From a virus (taxonomy: Duplodnaviria; Heunggongvirae; Uroviricota; Caudoviricetes), in IMG/VR virus record IMGVR_UViG_2537562021_000003, positions 1 through 20,713 of that record: DNA of 20,713 nt; one strand, given 5' to 3'. The position numbers and the translations under genes were made by a program. The notes under the pieces are model-generated. The model saw only the letters and a list, made by a program, of their open reading frames with translations. It searched no databases and was not told the origin of the DNA. Numbering within the stretch: the stretch's first letter is position 1; the number at the start of each line of letters is the position of its first letter. This document shows positions 157-20,713 of this stretch, one piece after another.

Positions 157-1170
157 TTACGGTTGGCTGTTTTTAACATTCAAAAGAAAGTTCTTCCAAA
201 TTATTAGCAGTGAATTTTTATCTAAATCAATCTTATGAGGTTTGATGTTTTTTCCTTCATATATATTTTTATAATAGCAATCGATAGCAAAATGAATAGT
301 TAAATTATCTGGATGTATGGCTAGTAGACCTCGGTCAAGCAAGGCATGAAGGGTAGGTTCAAGAGGTATTCCATTGTTGGTTCTATGGTTTTGGGTCTGA
401 GAAAATGGTTCAAGGTGACATGCCTGCAATACTGGGAGGTTGTAACCTGTTATTGCGCATACATTTGAGAAGTTTTTTAGAACCCTTTTTTTAAAGTCAA
501 CCTGTTCGCCAGAGTCACGCTGTAATACTGTTTGCAGATGAGTATTGCCTTTTGTGACAACTGGTATACTAATTGTATCAGAGGGATTTATAAATATGAC
601 TGGCGGTAGAGTAGGTTCTAGAATGTTTTTTTGTCCAAGAAACTGCCTTGATAATAATTCATCTTTAGCGATTTTTATTGCTTCACTTTTTGTTAATGAA
701 AGGCATGCCAGATTATACGCATCTACATTGAAATATTTAGTTTCCCTGTTTAGCGTAATGGATGATATTTTTTTATCGTGTTCTGCTATTGGTATACCTT
801 TTGTGACAGGATGCGAAATGCTTTCAAGCAGTGTTGTATTGCCATTTATTTCTTTATTAAACAATGAGGTAGGGTGTTCAATCATATTGCTATGCTTGGC
901 GCGATAGTGCTCATATAGGCCATGAGCACTTTTGAAATTTTTCTTGCATATTATACAGCTAACATTTCCCCCATTAATTTTTTTTGAATTTCTTTTTCTG
1001 GATTCAACAAGAGAGTTTGTTAGATCTTCTCTTAGTTTTAATATTCTGAGGTTGGTTGGGTTGTTTCCTCGTCTATATGGTAAGCTCTCAAGTCTATTTA
1101 ACTCATTTTTGAGGTGTTGGTACTGTTTACGTGAAATTAAATTAGGTTTCATATTTAAGATTAAGATCAC
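157..1170 (-). CDS. Cargo protein with N-terminal C2H2-like zinc finger and C-terminal HNH-like nuclease motif (candidate exclusion/defence nuclease)
   Basis: 337-aa ORF, visibly AT-rich compared with the backbone. CIICKKNFKSAHGLYEHYRAKH has C-x2-C-x12-H-x4-H spacing. The C-terminus CAITG...LQACHLEPF...NNGIPLEPTLHALLDRGLLAI resembles the HNH_2-type motif as I recall it. Start is GTG at 1170 or ATG at 1152; no clear SD. Confidence 0.6.
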   Translation of the reverse strand: MILILNMKPNLISRKQYQHLKNELNRLESLPYRRGNNPTNLRILKLREDLTNSLVESRKRNSKKINGGNVSCIICKKNFKSAHGLYEHYRAKHSNMIEHPTSLFNKEINGNTTLLESISHPVTKGIPIAEHDKKISSITLNRETKYFNVDAYNLACLSLTKSEAIKIAKDELLSRQFLGQKNILEPTLPPVIFINPSDTISIPVVTKGNTHLQTVLQRDSGEQVDFKKRVLKNFSNVCAITGYNLPVLQACHLEPFSQTQNHRTNNGIPLEPTLHALLDRGLLAIHPDNLTIHFAIDCYYKNIYEGKNIKPHKIDLDKNSLLIIWKNFLLNVKNSQP

Positions 1171-4803: not shown

Positions 4804-5657
4804 GCACCATCCTGAAATGGGCGGGAAATAAAACCGCCATTATGTCCGAACTGAAAAAACACCTTCCTGCTGGCCCGCGACTGGTTGAACCTTTCGCGGG
4901 TTCCTGTGCTGTGATGATGGAGACGGATTACCCCAGCTATCTGGTTGCGGATATTAATCCTGATTTAATCAACCTCTATAAAAAGGTTGCTGCTGATTGT
5001 GAATCGTTTATATCTCGCGCTAGAGTTTTATTTGAGATCGCAAACAGGGAGGTGGCTTATTACAACATAAGGCAGGAGTTTAATTACTCCACTGAAATTA
5101 CTGATTTCATGAAAGCGGTATATTTCCTGTATCTCAATCGTCACGGTTACCGTGGTTTATGTCGCTATAACAAGAGCGGGCATTTCAACATTCCCTACGG
5201 TAATTATAAAAATCCGTATTTCCCTGAAAAAGAAATTCGCGCATTTGCAGAAAAGGCCCAGCGAGCAACGTTTATCTGCGCCAGCTTTGATGAAACGCTG
5301 GCGATCTTGAAGGCGGGGGATGTGGTGTATTGCGATCCGCCGTATGACGGTACGTTTTCCGGCTATCACACTGATGGTTTCACTGAAGATGACCAGTATC
5401 ACCTGGCATCTGTTCTTGAACATCGGTCATCAGAAGGACATCCGGTCATTGTTTCTAACAGTGACACATCCCTGATCCGTTCGCTGTATCGCAATTTTAC
5501 TCACCACTACATCAAGGCAAAACGCAGCATCGGTGTGGCAGCTGGCGAGGGTAAATCAGCAACAGAAATCATTGCTGTTTCCGGGCCGCGCTGCTGGGTG
5601 GGATTTGATTATTCGCGTGGCGTGGATAGTTCTGCCGTGTACGGAGTACGTGCATGA
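4800..5657 (+). CDS. dam: DNA adenine methyltransferase (Dam-like, orphan)
   Basis: [17 protein letters not shown] and the DPPY motif in [11 protein letters not shown] at 4800 with SD GGAGGTG; ATGA overlaps with the neighbours on both sides. The track's longer ORF starts at 4740. Confidence 0.85.
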
Positions 5658-8068
5658 GCCATGCCGATATGAACAACTGCTGCGGCTTTAACGAGGCTGC
5701 CGCATCGTTCTCATGGAACAGCCCGAAAAAGGCCATTAACCCTTATCTGGACCCGGCGGAAGTTGCGCCGGTTTCTGCGCTTTCAAACCTGATCACTCTG
5801 TACGCTGCCGATAACGAGCAGGAACAGCTGCGCCGCGAGGCACTGAGTGATCAGGTCTGGGAGCGTTATTTCTTTAATGAATCCCGTGATCCTGTCCAGC
5901 GCGAAATGGAGCAGGATAAGCTCATTAGTCGGGCAAAGCTGGCGCATGAGCAGCAGCGTTTTAATCCAGATATGGTCATTCTGGCGGACGTCAATGCCCA
6001 GCCTTCCCATATCAGCAAGCCGCTGATGCAACGTATTGAATACTTCAGCAGCCTGGGCAGGCCAAAGGCTTATTCCCGCTATTTGCGTGAGACGATTAAG
6101 CCATGTCTGGAACGACTGGAGCATGTACGCGACAGTCAGCTATCCGCTTCTTTTCGCTTTATGGCAAGCCATGAAGGGCTGGATGGCCTGCTTATCCTGC
6201 CTGAAATGAGTCAGGATCAGGTGAAGCGCCTGTCTACCCTTGTCGCTGCGCATATGAGCATGTGCCTTGATGCAGCTTGTGGTGATTTGTATGCCACCGA
6301 TGACGTTAAGCCAGAAGAAATCCGCAAGACATGGGAAAAGGTGGCAGCGGAAACCCTGCGTCTGGATGTTATCCCGCCTGCGTTTGAGCAACTCCGTCGG
6401 AAAAGAAACCGCCGTAAACCCGTGCCCTATGAACTCATTCCGGGTTCGCTGGCGCGTATGTTGTGCGCTGACTGGTGGTACCGGAAATTATGGAAGATGC
6501 GTTGCGAATGGCGGGAAGAGCAGTTGCGCGCTGTCTGCCTGGTCAGCAAAAAAGCATCTCCTTATGTCAGCTATGAAGCCGTGATGCATAAACGTGAGCA
6601 GCGCCGTAAGTCGCTGGAGTTTTTCCGTTCTCATGAACTGGTGAACGAAGACGGCGACACGCTGGACATGGAGGATGTGGTAAACGCCAGCAGCAGCAAC
6701 CCTGCGCATCGCCGCAATGAGATGATGGCCTGTGTTAAAGGTCTGGAACTTATCGCGGAAATGCGCGGTGACTGCGCCGTTTTCTACACCATCACCTGTC
6801 CGTCACGTTTCCATTCCACGCTAAATAACGGCAGACCCAACCCGAACTGGACAAATGCGACGGTAAGACAAAGCAGTGATTATTTGGTCGGCATGTTTGC
6901 TGCATTTCGTAAGGCGATGCACAAAGCCGGATTGCGCTGGTATGGCGTGCGGGTGGCTGAGCCGCATCATGACGGTACAGTTCACTGGCACCTGTTGTGT
7001 TTTATGCGCAAAAAAGACCGCCGCGCCATCACTGCATTACTGCGTAAGTTTGCCATCCGTGAAGACCGCGAGGAGCTGGGCAATAACACGGGGCCGCGCT
7101 TTAAGTCTGAGTTGATTAACCCGCGCAAAGGAACGCCGACAAGCTACATCGCGAAATATATCAGTAAGAACATTGACGGGCGTGGTCTGGCTGGCGAGAT
7201 CAGCAAGGAAACGGGTAAATCCCTGCGTGATAACGCTGAATACGTGAATGCCTGGGCGTCTCTGCATCGTGTTCAGCAATTCCGCTTCTTTGGCATTCCG
7301 GGGCGTCAGGCTTACCGTGAACTGCGATTGCTGGCTGGTCAGGCGGCAAGGCAACAGGGTGACAAAAAAGCAGGTGCGCCGGTACTGGATAACCCGCGCC
7401 TTGATGCAATCCTGGCTGCTGCTGATGCTGGTTGTTTTGCCACCTACATCATGAAGCAGGGCGGCGTACTGGTTCCCCGTAAATATCACCTCATCAGAAC
7501 TGCTTATGAAATCAACGAAGAGCCGACCGCCTATGGCGATCACGGCATTCGTATTTATGGCATCTGGTCACCTATTGCAGAGGGCAAGATCTGCACTCAT
7601 GCCGTGAAGTGGAAAATGGTTCGTAAGGCCGTTGACGTTCAGGAGGCGGCAGCCGACCAGGGCGCTTGCGCCCCTTGGACTCGTGGCAATAACTGTCCCC
7701 TTGCTGAAAATTTGAACCAACAGGAGAAAGATAAATCAGCTGATGGGGACCCCAGAACGGACTTTACCCGCATGGATGACAAGGAGTTGCACGATTACCT
7801 GCACAGTATGAACAAAAAGGAGCGCCGGGAACTGGCTGCAAGGTTACGTCTGGTGAAACCGAAACGGCGTAGAGACTACAAACAGCGAATTACAGACCAT
7901 CAACGACAGCAGCTCGTCTATGAACTGAAATCCAGAGGATTTGATGGCAGCGAGAAAGAGGTCGATTTACTCCTTCGCGGCGGCAGTATTCCGTCAGGAG
8001 CAGGCCTGCGTATCTTCTATCGGAACCAGCGTTTGCAGGAAGATGATAAGTGGCGGAACCTGTATTAA
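5654..8068 (+). CDS. A: Replication initiation endonuclease, P2 gene A / 186 RepA family
   Basis: 804 aa; [22 protein letters not shown] and YIAKYISK match the HUH/tyrosine rolling-circle signatures of gpA. Confidence 0.85.
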
Positions 8069-8160
8069 TTACGCTGGTTAACAATTCGTGCTCTTAATAA
8101 TACCAGGCATATCAGGCTGATAAGCGTAAAAAAACGTTTTACATCAGTAAGATTATTATA

Positions 8161-8180
8161 TACTGTAAATATAAACAGTG
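8161..8180. promoter_or_regulatory. LexA (SOS) box
   Basis: TACTGTAAATATAAACAGTG: CTGT-n8-ACAG with an AT-rich spacer, 44 nt upstream of the ATG at 8222. Confidence 0.65.
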
Positions 8181-8221: not shown

Positions 8222-8410
8222 ATGCAGGACTATTTTTTGGAGTCTTTGAAGCTCCAGCGCATTGATTTTTTTCTTAAGCTTGTAGCGGCTAGTGAGTGTA
8301 GTGATGAAGAGAAGGGGCTGGCTCTGCAGTGGGTTTCTGAATTGACTGATGAACTCATGGCAAAAATCAGAAGCCACGAATACAACCGCTCAATGGATGT
8401 CATCAGCTGA
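8222..8410 (+). CDS. Small SOS-controlled protein, candidate antirepressor N-terminal part (Tum-like by position)
   Basis: 62 aa with strong SD AGGAGG at 8212..8217; its stop overlaps the SD of the DinI-like gene. Confidence 0.55.
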   Translation: MQDYFLESLKLQRIDFFLKLVAASECSDEEKGLALQWVSELTDELMAKIRSHEYNRSMDVIS

Positions 8411-8420
8411 GGTGACTTTT

Positions 8421-8654
8421 ATGCGCATTGAAATAATGATCGATAAAGAGCAGAAGATTAGCCAGTCTACCTTGGACGCCCTTGAATCCGAGCTTTACCG
8501 CAATCTGCGCCCCCTGTATCCCAAAACGGTAATCCGTATCCGTAAAGGTAGCTCTAACGGTGTGGAACTGACCGGACTGCAACTGGACGAAGAAAGAAAA
8601 CAAGTGATGAAAATTATGCAGAAGGTGTGGGAAGACGACAGCTGGCTGCATTGA
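8421..8654 (+). CDS. DinI-family protein
   Basis: 77 aa; MRIEIMIDKEQ...IRKGSSNGVELTGL...VMKIMQKVWEDDSW parallels E. coli DinI as I recall it. SD GAGGTG at 8409..8414. Confidence 0.75.
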   Translation: MRIEIMIDKEQKISQSTLDALESELYRNLRPLYPKTVIRIRKGSSNGVELTGLQLDEERKQVMKIMQKVWEDDSWLH

Positions 8655-8707
8655 TTTTGTCAATAGACGCTTGTTTTTACTAATCAAAAAGGGTTACATA
8701 TGAGTGA

Positions 8708-8741
8708 GAGGCGATGTCAATCAGATATCGCCTTGTTTTTT
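8708..8741 (+). terminator. Candidate intrinsic terminator after the DinI-like gene
   Basis: Stem AGGCGAT (8709..8715) / ATCGCCT (8727..8733) then TTGTTTTTT; the loop is long (11 nt), so weak. Confidence 0.4.
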
Positions 8742-8767
8742 GTCAAGAAAAGAATAATAGGCTAAAA

Positions 8768-9445
8768 ATGAAAATTAATAATGTAGCGTTACCAATATCT
8801 CTTGCTGTAATCCTAACTGGTTGCGTGCCACATGCTTCTAACCGAAATATCACTGCTATTGAAGTGGTGAAGCCTGCTATTGGGCAAAGTGCTACCGCCT
8901 ACATGGGCGATCCCATTATCACATCTGCTACTGGATTTAAAACGGACGTACTAGAACTTGGTGCGGCTAATGGTGCATTGTCTTCTATCGCTGCTGGTAC
9001 ATATTGCAGTGAGGGGAATGGAATTTACCGCAATTATCATAACCCTCAAGCTGTTGCGTTAAAAAATCTCTATGGGCAAATCGGTAACTATGTTGATTAT
9101 GTTAGTTACGATGCTGCAAAAAATGAGATATCACCGCCAAATGGTACTTCTTATACTGCATCAGAAATTTCTATCAAACGTGTTCCTGATGGGCTGTGTC
9201 GAGTTAGTAACTCATTGGTTAAGACTATCGAATACAATGGAAATGCAGGCGGTGTAATGAAGTTCACCTATCGTGAATTTGCAAACGATATGGCTCGTGC
9301 AGCATTTACAACAGATTTTTCTGTAGATTCTAAGGGAAGTGACGTTATCGCTTACAAAGGTGCCAAGTTCAAAGTGAACAAGGCTGATAACTCGTCTATT
9401 TCTTATACAATTATTTCTGGCTTTGACAAGGCTGTCACGTTCTAG
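8768..9445 (+). CDS. Lipoprotein of unknown function (cargo)
   Basis: MKINNVALPISLAVILTGC is a signal peptide with lipobox LTGC; AT-rich codon usage. The track's upstream start at 8714 lies inside the terminator hairpin. Confidence 0.65.
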   Translation: MKINNVALPISLAVILTGCVPHASNRNITAIEVVKPAIGQSATAYMGDPIITSATGFKTDVLELGAANGALSSIAAGTYCSEGNGIYRNYHNPQAVALKNLYGQIGNYVDYVSYDAAKNEISPPNGTSYTASEISIKRVPDGLCRVSNSLVKTIEYNGNAGGVMKFTYREFANDMARAAFTTDFSVDSKGSDVIAYKGAKFKVNKADNSSISYTIISGFDKAVTF

Positions 9446-9548
9446 GTTTCACGCTTACTGAGTATGTTACGATTTTGCACATTCTGCATAAACGCGCATG
9501 TCTATGCTGCATGAGATCGCATGATCGTTTGAGGATCTTTTGTGTTAA

Positions 9549-9574
9549 GGCCCGCCAGTTCTGGCGGGCTTTTG
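9549..9574 (+). terminator. Intrinsic terminator downstream of the lipoprotein gene
   Basis: GCCCGCCAG / CTGGCGGGC 9-bp inverted repeat followed by TTTT. Confidence 0.6.
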
Positions 9575-9618
9575 CGTAGATCATGCAGGTGCATGAAAAC
9601 CACTACATAAAGCGGGCA

Positions 9619-9637
9619 GGCGTGGCGGGGATACGAG
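9619..9637. other. cos-like packaging site (P2/186-type cohesive-end sequence)
   Basis: GGCGTGGCGGGGATACGAG: the first 13 nt match the 186 cohesive end as I recall it (GGCGTGGCGGGGAAAGCAT). GC-rich patch between accessory genes and the portal gene. Confidence 0.45.
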
Positions 9638-9864
9638 CGCGCGCCGCGGGTTGAAATAGTAAAATTCACTTAGCCTCAGGCCCGCTGATGGTTTTCTTCT
9701 GAAAGGGAGGGCGCGTTTTTGTGCAATCTTGTTTGAAGGGATTTAAATAAATGTTGAATGTGTTCCGGAGTTGGCTGTAGATTTAGTGTTCTGCCACAAG
9801 TTGCAGTGATAGGTAGCAAACCTTTAAAAGGTTCTGCTATTGTTTCATTAAAGATTTATAGTCT

Positions 9865-10464
9865 TTGTCCGAAAATGACATTAAAGTAGTCGCCTTTAAT
9901 GTCGTAAGCATGAAGGACAGAGAATTGAACTTAGAGCAGATTGCCAGTCAAAGTATAAGTAACCTTCAGTTTCTCCTCGATACTTTGAAGATGCCGTTGG
10001 CTGTTGGTCCAATCAGTGATGAAGACTATGTGATCCTGACCACAGGATACGCTCAGCTAGAATGGGATTATGGTTTTTCTCGGTTTGGCAATCGAAGTGA
10101 TAAGTTTGAATTTTGTTTGAAGCTCCTTGCGGGGCCACTTAGGCATATCCCTTCTGGCGCAGCTATGTGCACCTTTGACGAGGACGCTGGAGTCATAGAG
10201 ATCCATTTTGTGGAATCTTTTGTGAAAGATGATGACGTAGAGCACCCTCTTTACGGCAACATGTTCATGGTTACATTGTGGGCGGTATATCTTTTTGGTA
10301 GCGCGGTTGGGTGTCAAGAGATTCGGATCCCTGAAGCCCTGAATCAAAAAGTTGCTGACCACTATAAAAAATTTGGTTTTAAAGGTGATATAAGCTTGCT
10401 TTCGGCACCTTTTGCTACAATAACTGATGTAGTAAGACGCTACATTACTTCTAAGAAACAGTAG
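9865..10464 (+). CDS. Hypothetical cargo protein; C-terminus possibly GNAT-like
   Basis: 199-aa ORF from TTG 9865 (or 184 aa from ATG 9910); no strong SD for either. IRIPEALNQKVADHYKKFGF resembles GNAT motif B; no clear motif A. Confidence 0.5.
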   Translation: MSENDIKVVAFNVVSMKDRELNLEQIASQSISNLQFLLDTLKMPLAVGPISDEDYVILTTGYAQLEWDYGFSRFGNRSDKFEFCLKLLAGPLRHIPSGAAMCTFDEDAGVIEIHFVESFVKDDDVEHPLYGNMFMVTLWAVYLFGSAVGCQEIRIPEALNQKVADHYKKFGFKGDISLLSAPFATITDVVRRYITSKKQ

Positions 10465-10543: not shown

Positions 10544-10723
10544 ATGACTATGACGCATAGTGACAAGAAAGCTCAGAAGCATTACTCAGTATCTGATGTT
10601 TTCAGCCGTATGGGCGTCGCGATGGAAGAACTACTTCAAGCGGCCCCACATATGATGCAGGACTGCAAATTTGAAGGAAATGAGCTGCATGGTAAGCTCA
10701 AAGAAAAGCAGAAAGCTGCTTAA
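10544..10723 (+). CDS. Small hypothetical protein (59 aa), not in the ORF track
   Basis: My own translation: MTMTHSDKKAQKHYSVSDVFSRMGVAMEELLQAAPHMMQDCKFEGNELHGKLKEKQKAA. SD AAGAGGA at 10533..10539; terminator follows. Confidence 0.5.
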   Translation: MTMTHSDKKAQKHYSVSDVFSRMGVAMEELLQAAPHMMQDCKFEGNELHGKLKEKQKAA

Positions 10724-10747
10724 TTCCATGAAATGCGTTTTGCATGA

Positions 10748-10771
10748 AGCCCGGTAATACCGGGCTTTTTT
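10748..10771 (+). terminator. Intrinsic terminator between the convergent 59-aa ORF and Q
   Basis: AGCCCGG TAATA CCGGGCT followed by TTTTTT. Confidence 0.7.
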
Positions 10772-10778
10772 ATGCTTG

Positions 10779-11816
10779 CTAGTCAGTATTAAGCTCATAT
10801 GGATTGAATCGGACTACCTCTTCACCAAGCCATTCATTTAGCTCCAGCAATCGCTTTTGTAACGGTACTATTTCGTTTCTTGTGAAGACGCGACTGGCCT
10901 TTTCCACATCCCCAAAACCGCCGGTATTGTTGGGAATGATACCCATCATTTGCGGCGGCACACGATGCGCCGCCATCATGTCGTCCCGGCTCACGTTCTT
11001 GATATTCAGGAACTCATCCTTCGCCGCCACTTCTGACAACGGGATAATCTGAAGCCCATCCTTTTTGCCGTTAGGCGAGTACATAAACAGGTTACGGAAG
11101 TTACCAGGACCTTTGGCACTTTTCATTGCGTTGCGGAGGTTGTTCACATCCTCCTGGTTCTGCGCGGCGTCGGTCATGTACATGATGAAGCCCGCATGGC
11201 TGCCGTTAATGTAATACTTCCGGCGGAACAGCGTGGCGGACTCGTTGAGCAGGGCTGACGGAATGGCAGAAAGATAACCGGGCAGGCCGTAGATCTCCTG
11301 GTTGATGTCCGGCTCCATCAGATGAAAAATGCTGCCTTTCGTGAACTGATACGGCTGGGTTGTCATACCGTATTGCACAAACCAGTAGGTATCCAGGTCT
11401 AACCCGCGTCGGGTGTATTTTGCCAGAGCAGGCTCAAGGGCTATAACTTCACCGAAGCGGTTCGTGCGTTTCTCCAGGTAGGCGTTACCAAAAACCAGAA
11501 AGTCCTGTACAAAACGCGAAAAAGCCTGCTGGCTGAGCAGCGGGTGAGGGATGTAGGTGCTGGTCAGAATGTTGCACTTCACTGCAATCGGTGAGCTATG
11601 ATGTATGGCGGCGCGGAAGGTTCGCGCCAGTCCGTCGAAACTCACAGGCAGCTCATACCAACGATCCATCTGTACGCATTCCACATAGTCCAGCAGTTCG
11701 CGGCGGTCCAGAACAGGAACGGGATCACCGAAGCTGAATGCTTCGGCTGAAGTCTGGCTTTTATGCTGGATCTGTTTCGTCGACGCAGCGCGGTTCTTCT
11801 TACTCTTTCCCATCAA
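10779..11816 (-). CDS. Q: Portal protein, P2 gpQ family
   Basis: 345 aa (P2 Q is about the same size), directly followed on the same strand by the terminase ORF. Confidence 0.8.
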   Translation of the reverse strand: MMGKSKKNRAASTKQIQHKSQTSAEAFSFGDPVPVLDRRELLDYVECVQMDRWYELPVSFDGLARTFRAAIHHSSPIAVKCNILTSTYIPHPLLSQQAFSRFVQDFLVFGNAYLEKRTNRFGEVIALEPALAKYTRRGLDLDTYWFVQYGMTTQPYQFTKGSIFHLMEPDINQEIYGLPGYLSAIPSALLNESATLFRRKYYINGSHAGFIMYMTDAAQNQEDVNNLRNAMKSAKGPGNFRNLFMYSPNGKKDGLQIIPLSEVAAKDEFLNIKNVSRDDMMAAHRVPPQMMGIIPNNTGGFGDVEKASRVFTRNEIVPLQKRLLELNEWLGEEVVRFNPYELNTD

Positions 11817-13000
11817 AAAATCTCCACAATATTGCTGGTATTGGCGGACTCGCCCTGCAGCGGTTCGTTAAACAGTGCGTGCATTGTTGCCCAGGCCAGA
11901 TCGGCATGGCTGGCTTCTTCGCTGCGGCTGGCTTCATAGGTCGGGCGGTTGCCACTGGCAGTGGTAGCGCGACGGATTGCCATAAATGACTGCGCAATGT
12001 CGGTGTGCCCGGCGTCAAACTCCAGGCGGCGGTGGCTGATAATGTCGTAGGCCTTGAGTACCAGGGCGTTTTTAACGTTGGGGTTGTAGACAAACTCCCG
12101 GACGGCAGGAAAAAACGCTTTCACGTTCTCGTAAACCCCGTGACCGACGCCGGTCGAGTCGATGCCGATATAGGTCACGTTATACTGTTCGGTCAGTTTT
12201 TTGATGGCGTCAGCCTGGGCGCGAAAGTCCATTCCGCGCCACTGGTGACGCTCAAGAATGCGGAACTTGCCGCCCGGCACGGCTGGCGGAGCCACCACCA
12301 CGCATCCGGCGCTGTCACCGTTTTGCGTACCTTTTGCCGGGTCATAACCGATCCACACTTCGCGCCAGCCAAACGGGCGCAGCGCCAGTGCATGAAAGTC
12401 GGTCCAGACTTCCCAGCTGTCCACCATGCACGCCTGCAGCTCGCTGAGCGGGAACACGGACGCGAGATCGTCCACGAACTCACACATCAGCAGGTTCTGG
12501 TATTCGTCCGGGCTGTACTCCATGCGCAACTGGTCAAGGTCGAACAGGTTACAGCCGCCGCGCACCGCATCTTCCACAGTGACTATCTGGCGGTACTGCC
12601 CGTCTGCGCACAGCAGGCCGGGGGCCAGATTGCTGTGGGACAGGTCGATGTCCACCTTATCGGCTTTGTTGCGCCCTCGGTTGAACAGCGCACCGGACCA
12701 GAACGGATAAGCACTGTGTGTCAGGCTGGATGGCGTGGAAAAATAGGTTTGTCGCCATTTTTTGTGAATAGCCATACCGGAAGCCACTTTGCGCAGCTCC
12801 TGGAATTTCGGTATCCAGAAATATTCATCCAGATACAGGTTGCCGTGGTAACTCTGGGCCGTGCGGGCATTGGTGCCGAGGAAGTACAGCGTGGCCCCGT
12901 TAGGAAGCACCATCGGATCGCCTTTCAGCTCCACCTCCACTTCTTTGGCGAAGTCGATGATGTACTGCTTAAAGACGTGGGCCTGAGCCTTGCTGGCGGA
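11813..13000 (-). pseudogene. P: Terminase large subunit (gpP) remnant lacking its N-terminal part
   Basis: About 395 codons of protein-like reading frame with a Walker-B-like LYLDEYFWI but no Walker A; a full gpP (about 590 aa) would have to start near 13585, which is occupied by FII/E coding sequence. Confidence 0.7.
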
Positions 13001-13256
13001 AAGGAAAATCTGGTTACGCCCGGTTACCGGAGAAGTGCAGGCCGTGGAGCTTGTGGTGCGTGGACGTCACAAAGAAGTGGATTCCGGCGAGTGGAAGACG
13101 GGCGAAAGCAACACCACCAAAGTGACCAGTACCAACAGCTACGCGAAGCTGACCATCAATGGTGAGGTGCTCTATGAAGTGGACCTTATCAACATGGTGG
13201 AAATTGTGGACGGTGTGGACCTGATGGAAGCGCACCGCAACGCCCTCGGCCTCTGA
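12987..13256 (+). pseudogene. Tail tube (gpFII) C-terminal fragment
   Basis: ...TGEVQAVELVVRGRHKEVDSGEWKTGE...INGEVLYEVDLINMVEIVDGVDLMEAHRNALGL resembles the FII C-terminus; in-frame stop at 12984..12986 and no N-terminal half. Confidence 0.55.
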
Positions 13257-19192: not shown

Positions 19193-19315
19193 GTGAAACC
19201 TCTTTGCATGATTTCAAGATGGCGACAGGCAAGATGGACGAAAAAGTCTGTCGCCATTTTGCCGCCACTACCAAAGAAAAAGGGGCTACGCTTTCACGTA
19301 ACCCCTTGATTTATT

Positions 19316-19360
19316 TGGTGGAGCTGGCGGGAGTTGAACCCGCGTCCGAAATTCCTACAT
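19316..19360 (-). other. Attachment-site core: 3'-terminal 45 nt of ssrA (tmRNA), not a complete gene
   Basis: TGGTGGAGCTGGCGGGAGTTGAACCCGCGTCCGAAATTCCTACAT is the reverse complement of the E. coli tmRNA 3' end (recalled); the match stops at 19361 where AT-rich phage sequence begins. Confidence 0.75.
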
Positions 19361-19486
19361 ACTATTTTTAATACAATGAAAACAGTAGTTTGCGTTTAAA
19401 AACAGTGTGTTACTATTATCCTGTGTTTATCCGTTTTACGCATTTTTAATGCTCTGCCGCCAAGTTGTCGCCAATTTTAGGCTAAC

Positions 19487-20500
19487 TTACGGTTGGCTGT
19501 TTTTAACATTCAAAAGAAAGTTCTTCCAAATTATTAGCAGTGAATTTTTATCTAAATCAATCTTATGAGGTTTGATGTTTTTTCCTTCATATATATTTTT
19601 ATAATAGCAATCGATAGCAAAATGAATAGTTAAATTATCTGGATGTATGGCTAGTAGACCTCGGTCAAGCAAGGCATGAAGGGTAGGTTCAAGAGGTATT
19701 CCATTGTTGGTTCTATGGTTTTGGGTCTGAGAAAATGGTTCAAGGTGACATGCCTGCAATACTGGGAGGTTGTAACCTGTTATTGCGCATACATTTGAGA
19801 AGTTTTTTAGAACCCTTTTTTTAAAGTCAACCTGTTCGCCAGAGTCACGCTGTAATACTGTTTGCAGATGAGTATTGCCTTTTGTGACAACTGGTATACT
19901 AATTGTATCAGAGGGATTTATAAATATGACTGGCGGTAGAGTAGGTTCTAGAATGTTTTTTTGTCCAAGAAACTGCCTTGATAATAATTCATCTTTAGCG
20001 ATTTTTATTGCTTCACTTTTTGTTAATGAAAGGCATGCCAGATTATACGCATCTACATTGAAATATTTAGTTTCCCTGTTTAGCGTAATGGATGATATTT
20101 TTTTATCGTGTTCTGCTATTGGTATACCTTTTGTGACAGGATGCGAAATGCTTTCAAGCAGTGTTGTATTGCCATTTATTTCTTTATTAAACAATGAGGT
20201 AGGGTGTTCAATCATATTGCTATGCTTGGCGCGATAGTGCTCATATAGGCCATGAGCACTTTTGAAATTTTTCTTGCATATTATACAGCTAACATTTCCC
20301 CCATTAATTTTTTTTGAATTTCTTTTTCTGGATTCAACAAGAGAGTTTGTTAGATCTTCTCTTAGTTTTAATATTCTGAGGTTGGTTGGGTTGTTTCCTC
20401 GTCTATATGGTAAGCTCTCAAGTCTATTTAACTCATTTTTGAGGTGTTGGTACTGTTTACGTGAAATTAAATTAGGTTTCATATTTAAGATTAAGATCAC
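19487..20500 (-). CDS. Second copy of the zinc-finger/HNH-like nuclease gene
   Basis: Identical 337-aa translation to 157..1170. Confidence 0.6.
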   Translation of the reverse strand: MILILNMKPNLISRKQYQHLKNELNRLESLPYRRGNNPTNLRILKLREDLTNSLVESRKRNSKKINGGNVSCIICKKNFKSAHGLYEHYRAKHSNMIEHPTSLFNKEINGNTTLLESISHPVTKGIPIAEHDKKISSITLNRETKYFNVDAYNLACLSLTKSEAIKIAKDELLSRQFLGQKNILEPTLPPVIFINPSDTISIPVVTKGNTHLQTVLQRDSGEQVDFKKRVLKNFSNVCAITGYNLPVLQACHLEPFSQTQNHRTNNGIPLEPTLHALLDRGLLAIHPDNLTIHFAIDCYYKNIYEGKNIKPHKIDLDKNSLLIIWKNFLLNVKNSQP

Positions 20501-20522
20501 TTTTGTGTACTTACATTATAAG

Positions 20523-20713
20523 TTACATGTTATTCGACAAGTATATAAAGTTCAAAGGGTTTTTCGTTACTGCATCTTCCAGATGGTCTGGAGAAAAATG
20601 GGCGTAAATCATCGTCATTTTTATATCGGCATGGCCCAAAATATCGCGCAGTACCAGTATGTTTCCGCCGTTCATCATGAAATGGCTGGCGAATGTATGG
20701 CGTAGAACGTGGG
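20523..20713 (-). CDS. int: Integrase, C-terminal part of a second copy (truncated by window end)
   Basis: Identical to 1193..1383, encoding the catalytic C-terminus. Confidence 0.8.
   Translation of the reverse strand, partial: HVLRHTFASHFMMNGGNILVLRDILGHADIKMTMIYAHFSPDHLEDAVTKNPLNFIYLSNNM

Follow-up and report, generated by a model that had tools for sequence, protein, structure and literature searches.

A PHROG 1353 lipoprotein gene at the distal end of a LexA-controlled operon in a P2-like phage and its possible role in phage exclusion

The window analyzed here is a stretch of phage DNA of 20,713 nt. Between its replication gene A (5654-8068) and cos lies a plus-strand gene (8768-9445, ATG at 8768) for a 225-aa product beginning MKINNVALPISLAVILTGC, which is annotated as "hypothetical" in every record. 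The same gene is known as STM2726 in Fels-2 and as WP_000700647.1, locus tag ECHS_RS25360, in DuoHS, the prophage of E. coli HS, and the DuoHS copy is identical at the nucleotide level. The literature searched contained no mention of its protein accessions. The features of the locus are listed in Table 1.

Table 1. Sequence features of the lipoprotein gene and of the operon around it (window coordinates)
Feature	Position	Strand	Remarks
p95-type SOS promoter	8138..8180	+	-35 TTTACA 8138-8143, 17-nt spacer, -10 TACTGT 8161-8166
LexA box TACTGTAAATATAAACAGTG	8161-8180	+	contains the -10 element; consensus match 17/20
orf62	8222..8410	+	62 aa; PHROG 698, function unassigned; STM2728 in Fels-2; first operon gene
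DinI-family/TumB-like gene	8421..8654	+	77 aa; Pfam DinI E 1e-22; PHROG 189
Terminator-like hairpin and T-run, AGGCGATGTC-AATCA-GATATCGCCT, then TGTTTTTTGT	8708..8744	+	-16.6 kcal/mol
Weak Shine-Dalgarno AGG	8759..8761	+	6 nt 5' of the ATG, read from sequence
Signal peptide, residues 1-18, MKINNVALPISLAVILTG	8768..8821	+	lipobox L16-T17-G18, then C19
Mature lipoprotein, Cys19-Phe225, and stop codon	8822..9445	+	207 aa, 22.0 kDa, pI 7.8
Conserved cos region	9493..9643		right boundary of the cassette slot; from aligned empty and filled slots
Strong intrinsic terminator, GCCCGCCA-GTTC-TGGCGGGC, then TTTTGCG	9547..9576	+	-23.6 kcal/mol

The open reading frame that encloses the gene runs from 8714 to 9445, and the ATG at 8768 is internal to it. 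A 243-aa form starting at 8714 was rejected because stop codons stand directly 5' of the MK... start in the lineages of 88%, 79% and 57% identity, and because the ATG at 8714 falls within the terminator-like hairpin. PGAP also called the 225-aa form. An earlier note on this DNA had described the codon usage of the gene as AT-rich. This was confirmed: its GC content is 40.7% and its GC3 31.4%, compared with 53% and 58% in gene A. Between lineages, the dN/dS ratio was 0.04-0.07, which indicates strong purifying selection. The gene is real and constrained, far beyond what chance would give.

A protein was counted as a lipoprotein if its N-terminal signal peptide had a positively charged n-region followed by a hydrophobic h-region and by the motif [LVI][ASTVI][GAS]C, with the Cys at position 15-35. 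The lipobox PISLAVILTGC passed this PROSITE PS51257-type rule, with Cys19 and with Lys2 in the n-region. G18 and C19 were both invariant in 22 homologs, and C19 was invariant across 51 diverse relatives. A strict lipobox was present in 139 of the 158 full-length relatives, and most of the others shown had near-lipoboxes or type-I signal peptides. The proposal of the earlier note, a 225-aa lipoprotein with the lipobox LTGC, was thus upheld. The two weak points foreseen there, a missing SPase II site and homology to a phage structural lipoprotein, did not materialize: an SPase II site is predicted and no such homology was found. According to the Lol-avoidance rule, Asp at the +2 position bars sorting to the outer membrane. 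The +2 residue is Val here and Asp in none of the relatives, so the lipoprotein should, by this rule, reach the outer membrane. Residues 1-27 were disordered in the AF2 model, in which the mature protein appears as a tether of about 11 residues followed by an all-beta domain of about 195 residues. Cys80 and Cys144 were invariant within the close family.

Judged from the surrounding sequence, the lipoprotein gene is the distal gene of a 186-type LexA/tum SOS operon. Its order is LexA box, orf62, DinI/Tum-like gene, putative attenuator hairpin, lipoprotein gene, terminator and cos. The promoter and the LexA box are laid out like the p95/LexA site annotated in phage 186, and this box is the only CTGT-N8-ACAG in the whole window. 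Among 57 IMG/VR loci, 47 had a strict LexA box about 593-616 bp 5' of the gene, and cos lay 167-177 bp 3' of it in 51. The DinI/TumB-like protein shared 41% identity with 186 Tum over the C-terminal half of Tum (E = 3e-24), and BLAST gave no similarity between orf62 and the N-terminal half. LexA control of tum has been shown by experiment in DuoHS (PMC12055606). In Salmonella, the STM2726-2728 operon was flagged as responsive to a mutagen. For STM2727, the one gene to which the fold values belong, the induction by the mutagen MX was 5.5- to 14.8-fold (PMC2225428). From the order of the locus tags, we infer that STM2727 is the Fels-2 counterpart of the DinI/TumB-like gene.

The hairpin between the DinI/Tum-like gene and the lipoprotein gene is presumed, by analogy, to be an attenuator, the positional equivalent of the partial terminator t95a of 186. 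The 88% lineage retains it, with a C-G pair replaced by T-A in compensation, and the 79% lineage lacks it. The terminator behind the gene is equivalent to t95b of 186. We found no convincing separate sigma-70 promoter between the hairpin and the ATG, where the sole consensus match overlaps the start codon.

Colicin lysis (bacteriocin-release) lipoproteins, which trigger quasi-lysis, are likewise encoded distally in an operon under LexA control, with an attenuating terminator in front of their gene. The window protein might similarly help lysis or release by remodeling the outer membrane at the time of the SOS response. The shared regulatory layout (LexA box, attenuator, distal lipoprotein) and the expected expression together with the induction switch speak for such a helper. 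Nevertheless, we consider it improbable. Colicin lysis lipoproteins are about 30 aa long when mature, and the 207 aa of the window protein are several-fold above release lipoproteins; no similarity to them was found, nor any hint of toxicity. The gene also does not fit an o-spanin (Rz1/LysC), as it codes for 225 aa and lies in the SOS operon, outside the lysis cassette. In full-length relatives, the holin/endolysin/spanin cassette is complete and located elsewhere. Furthermore, the slot of the gene is empty or otherwise filled in about 96% of the E. coli prophages having the operon, and therefore the gene is dispensable for the lytic cycle. Some relatives reside on non-lytic elements.

The gene belongs to a horizontally acquired low-GC cassette (about 8655-9492), which in P2-like phages of the Fels-2/DuoHS type has the DinI/Tum-like gene on one side and cos on the other. 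The 19-nt cohesive end at 9621-9639 is GGCGTGGCGGGGATACGAG, and the cos of 186 is GGCGTGGCGGGGAAAGCAT. About 1,280 E. coli genomes had the operon, and just 50 of them had the lipoprotein gene. In other prophages, unrelated reverse-strand genes filled the same slot, and among phage records the slot was occupied 33 times by the Orf97 type of phage 186 and 33 times by the lipoprotein type. Of the 57 IMG/VR loci, essentially all that are P2-like kept this synteny, and the diverged 88% and 79% lineages were among them. Across cos from the gene is the main bay of variable cargo, such as retrons; compared with that cargo, the lipoprotein gene has a far more stable link to the backbone. The carriers were prophages of clinical Klebsiella, of Salmonella (Fels-2, LT2) and of commensal E. 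coli (DuoHS, strain HS), with nearly identical copies.

The gpA-gpQ region is a validated defence hotspot of P2, and WP_000700647 is listed in Table S5A of that study as "hypothetical" and was not among the systems cloned there (Rousset et al. 2022, PMC9122126). The earlier note had put the gene at the site where P2 carries tin and old. This is right for the A-cos accessory region, which belongs to the hotspot, but the gene is the distal member of an SOS operon and not a free-standing piece of cargo. Like Old, Tin and the hotspot cargo, it occupies the inter-A/Q accessory region and varies by presence and absence. It is not homologous to Old or Tin; its product is exported, not cytoplasmic, and the gene itself is part of the SOS operon, between A and cos.

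In homology searches, the lipoprotein matched the HMM of PHROG 1353 over its full length (E = 3.1e-105, residues 1-223 against positions 1-230 of the 230-position profile). PHROG 1353 is a phage protein family without assigned function, and it was the sole significant PHROG match. The family had 2,434 representatives at E ≤ 1e-3, which corresponds to about 2,400 clusters when grouped at 50% identity; almost every member was exported and the majority were lipoproteins. A scan of species-representative genomes returned one locus only. No match was found in Pfam at E ≤ 1, in PADLOC-DB v2 (including Old and Tin) at E ≤ 1, in a profile search against PDB sequences or in BFVD, and Rfam gave only a sub-threshold chance match. 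The only NCBIfam match, a polysaccharide lyase, was spurious (13.9 bits against a cut-off of 366 bits). The long members of the family (314-381 aa) had no informative extra domain in a Pfam scan, and the alignment of diverse sequences varied too much to be scanned for patterns. In the databases searched, the lipoprotein has no known fold relative and belongs to no known exclusion or defence family. The earlier note had recognized no family either, and apart from PHROG 1353 its impression was borne out.

The sampled family members were usually found at cargo positions of mobile elements, with several remote ones on contigs too short to show neighbors. Relatives occurred in tail modules of Acinetobacter and Moraxella siphophages, in serine-recombinase islands beside OLD nucleases or putAbiC, in one MobA element and in one int-AlpA-VapE island. 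One remote chromosomal member was located within the core rseP-bamA-skp envelope-biogenesis cluster.

Lambda Bor and plasmid TraT are outer-membrane lipoproteins that are carried as morons on mobile elements and alter the cell surface. The lipoprotein may likewise act in lysogenic conversion or host fitness, for example in serum or complement resistance, tolerance to envelope stress or antibiotics, or adhesion, being expressed by low read-through or from a weak promoter of its own. Its moron-like nature is in line with this, as the gene is low in GC and the mobile elements with relatives of it are of many kinds, islands and a relaxase element among them. The family member in the envelope-biogenesis cluster, the presence of the gene in prophages of clinical Klebsiella and Salmonella, and the lack of an exclusion phenotype of DuoHS against itself point the same way. 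However, Bor is expressed in the lysogen, whereas the window gene stands behind a LexA-repressed promoter with no convincing sigma-70 promoter of its own. A gene placed in an SOS operon is expressed mostly by cells close to lysis, and therefore a benefit for the lysogen fits poorly. The Pfam families of Bor and TraT were also not matched. We regard a fitness role as rather unlikely.

The T5 protein Llp and the phi80/N15 protein Cor are phage outer-membrane lipoproteins that block FhuA; they are made when the phage is active and are proposed to act at the cell surface. The earlier note had observed that the present protein is longer than these, and so it is (207 aa when mature against about 60-80 aa). 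No relationship to Llp or Cor was found in Pfam, PHROG or BFVD, and structural similarity to Llp, Cor, Bor or TraT was likewise not seen. Llp and Cor target FhuA, whereas P2-like phages use LPS or O-antigen, and the receptor of DuoHS is the O9 O-antigen.

Phages of Klebsiella and Salmonella with tail fibres that did not match each other shared the lipoprotein at 99.1% identity. Between the same phages, the tape measure was 31% identical, and the baseplate and spike proteins were 56-73% identical. In addition, capsule-less DuoHS lysogens with the identical gene are still bound by their own progeny after mitomycin C, and at high multiplicity DuoHS virions kill the DuoHS lysogens with the gene, in comparisons made without an isogenic mutant. 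Thus, with that limit on the comparison, no strong self-exclusion at adsorption is visible in DuoHS lysogens. Masking of the kind known from Llp and Cor, which the earlier note had raised, is therefore disfavoured as far as the phage's own receptor is concerned.

T5 Llp is also a precedent for the protection of progeny. On induced cells and on debris, the window protein might cover the receptor that its phage uses and thereby spare the released virions. The SOS timing would suit this, and exclusion systems have been discussed as "anti-Kronos" factors for DuoHS-like systems (PMC13622650). Such protection is nevertheless very improbable. Progeny pile up on capsule-less sister lysogens with the intact gene after mitomycin C; debris traps virions, although this debris came from lambda-lysis-gene lysates of unchecked prophage and SOS state; and the 99% identical protein occurs in phages with unrelated tail fibres and in different host genera.

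The closest positional counterpart of the gene is orf97 of phage 186. It has the same slot and layout, 3' of A, with a LexA-box promoter, a Tum/DinI gene, a partial terminator, an envelope gene, a terminator and cos. Both products, about 225-243 aa in length, are predicted to reside in the envelope. With transmembrane helices at its N-terminus and without a lipobox, Orf97 is probably an inner-membrane protein, whereas the window protein is a lipoprotein with a modeled all-beta domain. Homology between them was rejected (BLASTP E = 4.5), and the shared ORF length of 732 nt is a coincidence. The lipoprotein thus shares the slot of Orf97 and not its family. The 186 record states of Orf97 that "expression from plasmid blocks 186 infection".

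This self-directed block suggests another possibility, namely that the lipoprotein blocks injection by homotypic phages and that its target is the tape measure or the tail tip of the phage that comes in. The lipoprotein Ltp of Streptococcus phage TP-J34 is a precedent for an injection block, and the window protein is also a prophage lipoprotein, probably facing the periplasm. The divergence of the tape measure, baseplate and spike between the phages that share the nearly identical lipoprotein argues against such a target, as do the relatives in siphophages and on non-phage elements. We consider this possibility very unlikely.

The best explanation, to which we give a probability of about 0.4, is that the lipoprotein is an SOS-timed envelope protein that blocks the entry of incoming phages through a conserved host component. 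Read-through from the SOS promoter would transcribe the gene, and the protein would therefore reach the envelope with the onset of the SOS response, no later than prophage induction. In the envelope, it may bind a periplasmic or outer-membrane component that is conserved in E. coli, Salmonella and Klebsiella. Because the protein is almost unchanged in phages with unmatched tail fibres and a strongly divergent tape measure, its target would have to be conserved among hosts. Through this binding, incoming phages, and possibly colicins, might be disturbed at a receptor step or at a step after adsorption. In that case, the lipoprotein and Orf97 would be functional analogues without being orthologs, and the lipoprotein would serve heterotypic or generic exclusion and not the masking of the phage's own receptor.

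The cargo behavior of the family, the layout of the SOS operon, the location in a defence hotspot and the conserved lipoprotein features support exclusion at the level of sequence. The exclusion role gains further support from position, because the slot-mate Orf97 is recorded to block 186 infection. However, unrelated reverse-strand genes fill the same slot in other prophages, and the analogy with Orf97 is therefore weak evidence. The hairpin could terminate most of the SOS transcripts. The adsorption of DuoHS virions to lysogens with the gene, and the lack of homology to Orf97 and to the known exclusion and defence families searched, also speak against exclusion. The member in the bamA/rseP cluster hints that the fold has a housekeeping-type role in the envelope.

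A wider form of SOS-timed exclusion can also be proposed, although it is quite unlikely. The PHROG 1353 superfamily as a whole might be an unrecognized envelope shield of mobile elements, in which a lipoprotein of orphan fold docks on a conserved component of outer-membrane biogenesis or uptake and closes an entry route common to diverse phages and colicins. In P2-like phages, this shield would be raised only during the SOS response, as a generic exclusion independent of the phage's own receptor.

The placement of the gene in the SOS operon leads to a concrete hypothesis, an envelope modification timed by DNA damage. Two genetically tractable systems carry the gene, DuoHS in E. coli HS and Fels-2 in LT2. 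The lipoprotein family is large and unannotated, without a Pfam model or a structural relative. If the lipoprotein is an exclusion factor, it would represent a new class of proteins that block phage entry, and the final position in the SOS operon of Peduoviridae would be a dedicated bay for exchangeable envelope-acting genes. If true, this would bear on the host range of phages used in therapy and on the competition among prophages.

The lipoprotein gene already appears in catalogues (Fels-2, PHROGs and hotspot tables), but no study has characterised it. STM2726 of the Salmonella LT2 prophage Fels-2 is the same gene (99.1% amino-acid identity), ECHS_RS25360 of DuoHS, a prophage of E. coli HS, is nucleotide-identical, and an identical "hypothetical protein" occurs in ~24 Klebsiella P2-like phage records. 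WP_000700647 also stands as an anonymous "hypothetical" in the table of gpA-gpQ hotspot loci of Rousset et al., and a literature search on the lipoprotein accessions found no paper naming them. The earlier note had recognised no family, and this was borne out: the only family match was PHROG 1353, whose function is unknown and which matched over the full length (E = 3e-105); Pfam, NCBIfam and PADLOC gave no match.

The reading frame could be opened at an ATG at 8714. We rejected this start, which lies within a terminator-like hairpin; moreover, stop codons immediately precede the MK... start in homologous lineages of 88%, 79% and 57% identity, and PGAP calls the 225-aa form (WP_000700647.1). 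Judged by these comparisons, the ATG at 8768 is the conserved start. The N-terminus passed a PROSITE-type rule for lipoproteins (Lys2, an h-region without charges, and L-T-G-C ending in Cys19), and a signal-peptidase II site is thus predicted, in line with the LTGC lipobox proposed before. G18 and C19 were invariant across 22 homologs, and C19 was found without exception in 51 diverse relatives. Among the P2-like lineages compared, dN/dS was 0.04–0.07, which indicates a functional protein-coding gene under purifying selection. The AT-rich codon usage noted earlier is real: GC and GC3 were 40.7% and 31%, against 53% and 58% in replication gene A, which points to a foreign origin. On its sequence, the product is a conserved exported lipoprotein, predicted for the outer membrane, and its gene is a horizontally acquired cassette.

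The main new result is the genomic anatomy. The lipoprotein gene sits at the distal end of a LexA/tum operon beside cos, in a slot formed by the interval (~8655-9492) between the stop codon of the DinI-like gene and the conserved cos block (~9493-9643) on its right side. The motif CTGT-N8-ACAG occurs only once in the window, and the LexA box matches 17 of 20 consensus positions. Tum of phage 186 (146 aa) corresponds to two ORFs here. The 77-aa DinI-like ORF matches its C-terminal half (E = 3e-24), and similarity of the 62-aa ORF to its N-terminal half was not detected. Out of frame with orf62, a longer ORF (8349-8654) overlaps its last part.

Features of the lipoprotein operon and of the neighbouring cargo region (window coordinates)
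Feature	Position	Strand	Remarks
Promoter		+	-35 TTTACA, -10 TACTGT; upstream of lipoprotein gene
LexA box	8161-8180	+	TACTGTAAATATAAACAGTG; first half is the promoter -10
62-aa ORF (orf62)	8222-8410	+	same-strand ORF upstream of lipoprotein gene
DinI-family gene	8421-8654	+	upstream of lipoprotein gene; 41% identity to C-terminal half of 186 antirepressor Tum
Hairpin and T-run	8708-8744	+	-16.6 kcal/mol
Lipoprotein ORF	8714-9445	+	225-aa protein MKINNVALPISLAVILTGC... from the internal ATG at 8768
Strong terminator	9547-9576		downstream of gene; -23.6 kcal/mol
Cohesive-end site	9621-9639		GGCGTGGCGGGGATACGAG; downstream of gene; 186 cos is GGCGTGGCGGGGAAAGCAT
199-aa PHROG 4350 protein	9865-10464	+	unknown function; window cargo, cos-to-portal bay
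59-aa ORF	10544-10723	+	cos-to-portal cargo bay

The curated record of phage 186 has the same series: p95 with its LexA site, tum, t95a, orf97, t95b and cos. It describes t95a as "partial termination of p95 transcript", and orf97 with the words "expression from plasmid blocks 186 infection". From this precedent, we infer that transcription would read through the hairpin into the lipoprotein gene. Homology between Orf97 and the lipoprotein was rejected (BLASTP E = 4.5). Orf97 has N-terminal transmembrane helices and no lipobox, whereas the window protein has a lipobox. Therefore, the lipoprotein is a non-orthologous occupant of the Orf97 slot. Among deposited phages, the two types were found in 33 records each.

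Genetic work on DuoHS, whose lipoprotein gene is identical, has established that LexA controls tum; lexA(Ind-) and delta-tum DuoHS strains were not induced (PMC12055606). In Salmonella TA100 (Fels-2+), an expression study gives 5.5-, 11.1- and 14.8-fold increases of STM2727 as the dose of the mutagen MX rises; these fold values are those of STM2727 alone, and the study flagged differential expression for the predicted operon STM2726-STM2727-STM2728 (PMC2225428). From where it lies, STM2727 is expected to be the DinI-like gene. The lipoprotein might be a helper of lysis or release, like the colicin release lipoproteins, although we consider this rather improbable.

The orf62-DinI region was matched in ~1,281 complete E. 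coli genomes, and the lipoprotein gene in only 50. In genomes without it, the slot is empty or holds unrelated reverse-strand genes, which in the E. coli prophages L017-L020 encode a DUF8087 protein (111 aa), a 141-aa hypothetical protein and a DUF4145 protein (246 aa). The DUF8087 gene is also present in BL21(DE3). These alternative states indicate that the slot is a small exchange site, the second in this region, placed on the A side of cos. The classical variable cargo is found on the opposite side, from cos up to the portal gene, and includes retrons St85 and Ec67, TIGR04255 and an Abi-alpha-like gene. The window's own cargo in this bay was shared with only one of 57 related IMG/VR loci (L082). 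Its 199-aa protein, which had no match in Pfam or PADLOC, is a candidate for an uncharacterised defence gene. A Trp leader match from Rfam (10666-10773) was below threshold (19.9 bits against a gathering score of 41, E = 0.91), overlapped a terminator-like hairpin (10746-10768) and is most likely due to chance. The lipoprotein gene is tightly linked to its operon: order and spacing were constant in all complete P2-like loci among the 57, and all but four of these complete loci had a strict-consensus LexA box where it was expected. This layout extends to the 88% and 79% lineages, the backbones of which diverged in parallel. The 88% lineage retains the hairpin, one pair of which has changed from C-G to T-A in a compensatory manner; the 79% lineage lacks it.

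The window is a circular permutation, with its first 1,383 bases (1-1383) repeated exactly at 19331-20713. E. coli WS4437A-1 carries a truncated prophage with 99.9% identity to the window. In this strain the element is integrated at the ssrA 3′ end, and a 46-bp core (19315-19360) of the window matches it at either end. Thus, the excised element measures 19,330 bp, and the window crosses its attP-type junction. The prophage has suffered extensive deletion (11813-13170), with a truncated terminase gene fused beside a tail-tube fragment. It has lost its capsid, scaffold, lysis, baseplate, tail-fibre and sheath genes and keeps int, CI, the replication genes, portal, tape measure, gpU, gpD and ogr. 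The circular junction suggests that the deleted element is still able to excise. A gene with an HNH-endonuclease signature (157-1152, minus strand) also belongs to the element; it is flanked by the att core and the integrase gene.

A word-indexed search revealed only 27 close clusters; each came from Enterobacterales and was annotated "hypothetical". By exhaustive profile search, the family grew to 2,434 representatives at E ≤ 1e-3 (1,256 at E ≤ 1e-10), nearly all of 210-240 aa and matching end to end. A strict lipobox was present in 139 of 158 full-length members, most of the others having a near-lipobox or a type-I signal peptide, and none of the 158 had Asp at +2. Members share an N-terminal motif (P..G..T.Y.GD.M) and a C-terminal module of ~75 aa (IEY.G..G..F.YREF...AR.AF....DL....YKGA), and vary between them. 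No Pfam domain was found in ten remote and long members. The AlphaFold2 model is confidently all-beta (mean pLDDT 80, ~90 over residues 40-220), with residues 1-27 disordered. Phage-encoded envelope morons are a known kind of element, and so are distal genes of SOS operons. The lipoprotein itself is unrelated to all known examples and to known families, and its fold is an orphan.

The dominant pattern among relatives is mobile-element cargo, often near defence genes. Homologs of 54-61% identity lie in serine-recombinase prophages or islands, two of them adjoining OLD-family nucleases and one a putative AbiC; another is carried in a MobA-relaxase element. In Pseudoalteromonas, a copy stands at the far end of an integrase-AlpA-VapE island, and one in Methylotuvimicrobium borders on IS elements and group II introns. 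Homologs of 24-27% identity, with LVGC lipoboxes, are inserts in tail-gene clusters of Acinetobacter Vieuvirus phages and of Moraxella phage Mcat28. A remote member from a metagenomic bacterium (L026, 6001-6681; profile E = 3e-26) is the X in a core envelope-biogenesis cluster, frr-uppS-cdsA-SIMPL-X-dxr-rseP-bamA-skp-lpxD. A role in host fitness or lysogenic conversion is a further reading, which seems unlikely.

We compared co-variation between Klebsiella phage ST512-KPC3phi13.2 and Fels-2. The SOS module was the most conserved part of the two genomes (orf62 98%, DinI 100%, lipoprotein 99.1%), the rest ranging from no match up to 97%. The main tail fibres did not match, the collar fibres were 42% identical at the N-terminus only, the tape measures 31% and the baseplate proteins 56-73%. 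Thus, the lipoprotein does not track the adsorption or injection apparatus of its own phage, and an Ltp-like block aimed at the tape measure is the least probable reading. Any target would have to be a host component conserved across Enterobacteriaceae. The near-identical module suggests recent inter-genus exchange or unusually strong constraint.

The masking of receptors, to which the earlier note had pointed, is unlikely for the phage's own receptor. DuoHS uses the O9 O-antigen; progeny released from capsule-less DuoHS lysogens by mitomycin C collect on sister cells, virions are trapped by capsule-less debris produced through expression of lambda lysis genes, and lysogens exposed to high phage doses die through lysis from without (PMC13622650). 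The resistance marker of these strains was placed in the gpH-gpFI moron, which left the lipoprotein gene intact. For lysogens with the intact gene, these data argue against a strong block of self-adsorption. Together with the near-identical lipoprotein in phages with unmatched tail fibres, they make Llp-like protection of progeny through such masking very improbable.

We tentatively prefer exclusion of other phages, with a probability of about 0.4; the readings named here leave part of the probability unassigned. The lipoprotein would be made on SOS induction, act in the envelope upon a conserved host component and impede the entry of incoming phages, perhaps also of colicins. It would be a functional analogue of Orf97, that is, a heterotypic exclusion factor. 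The question is testable at once in DuoHS/E. coli HS and in Fels-2/LT2, and such work would open up a family of ~2,400 clusters.
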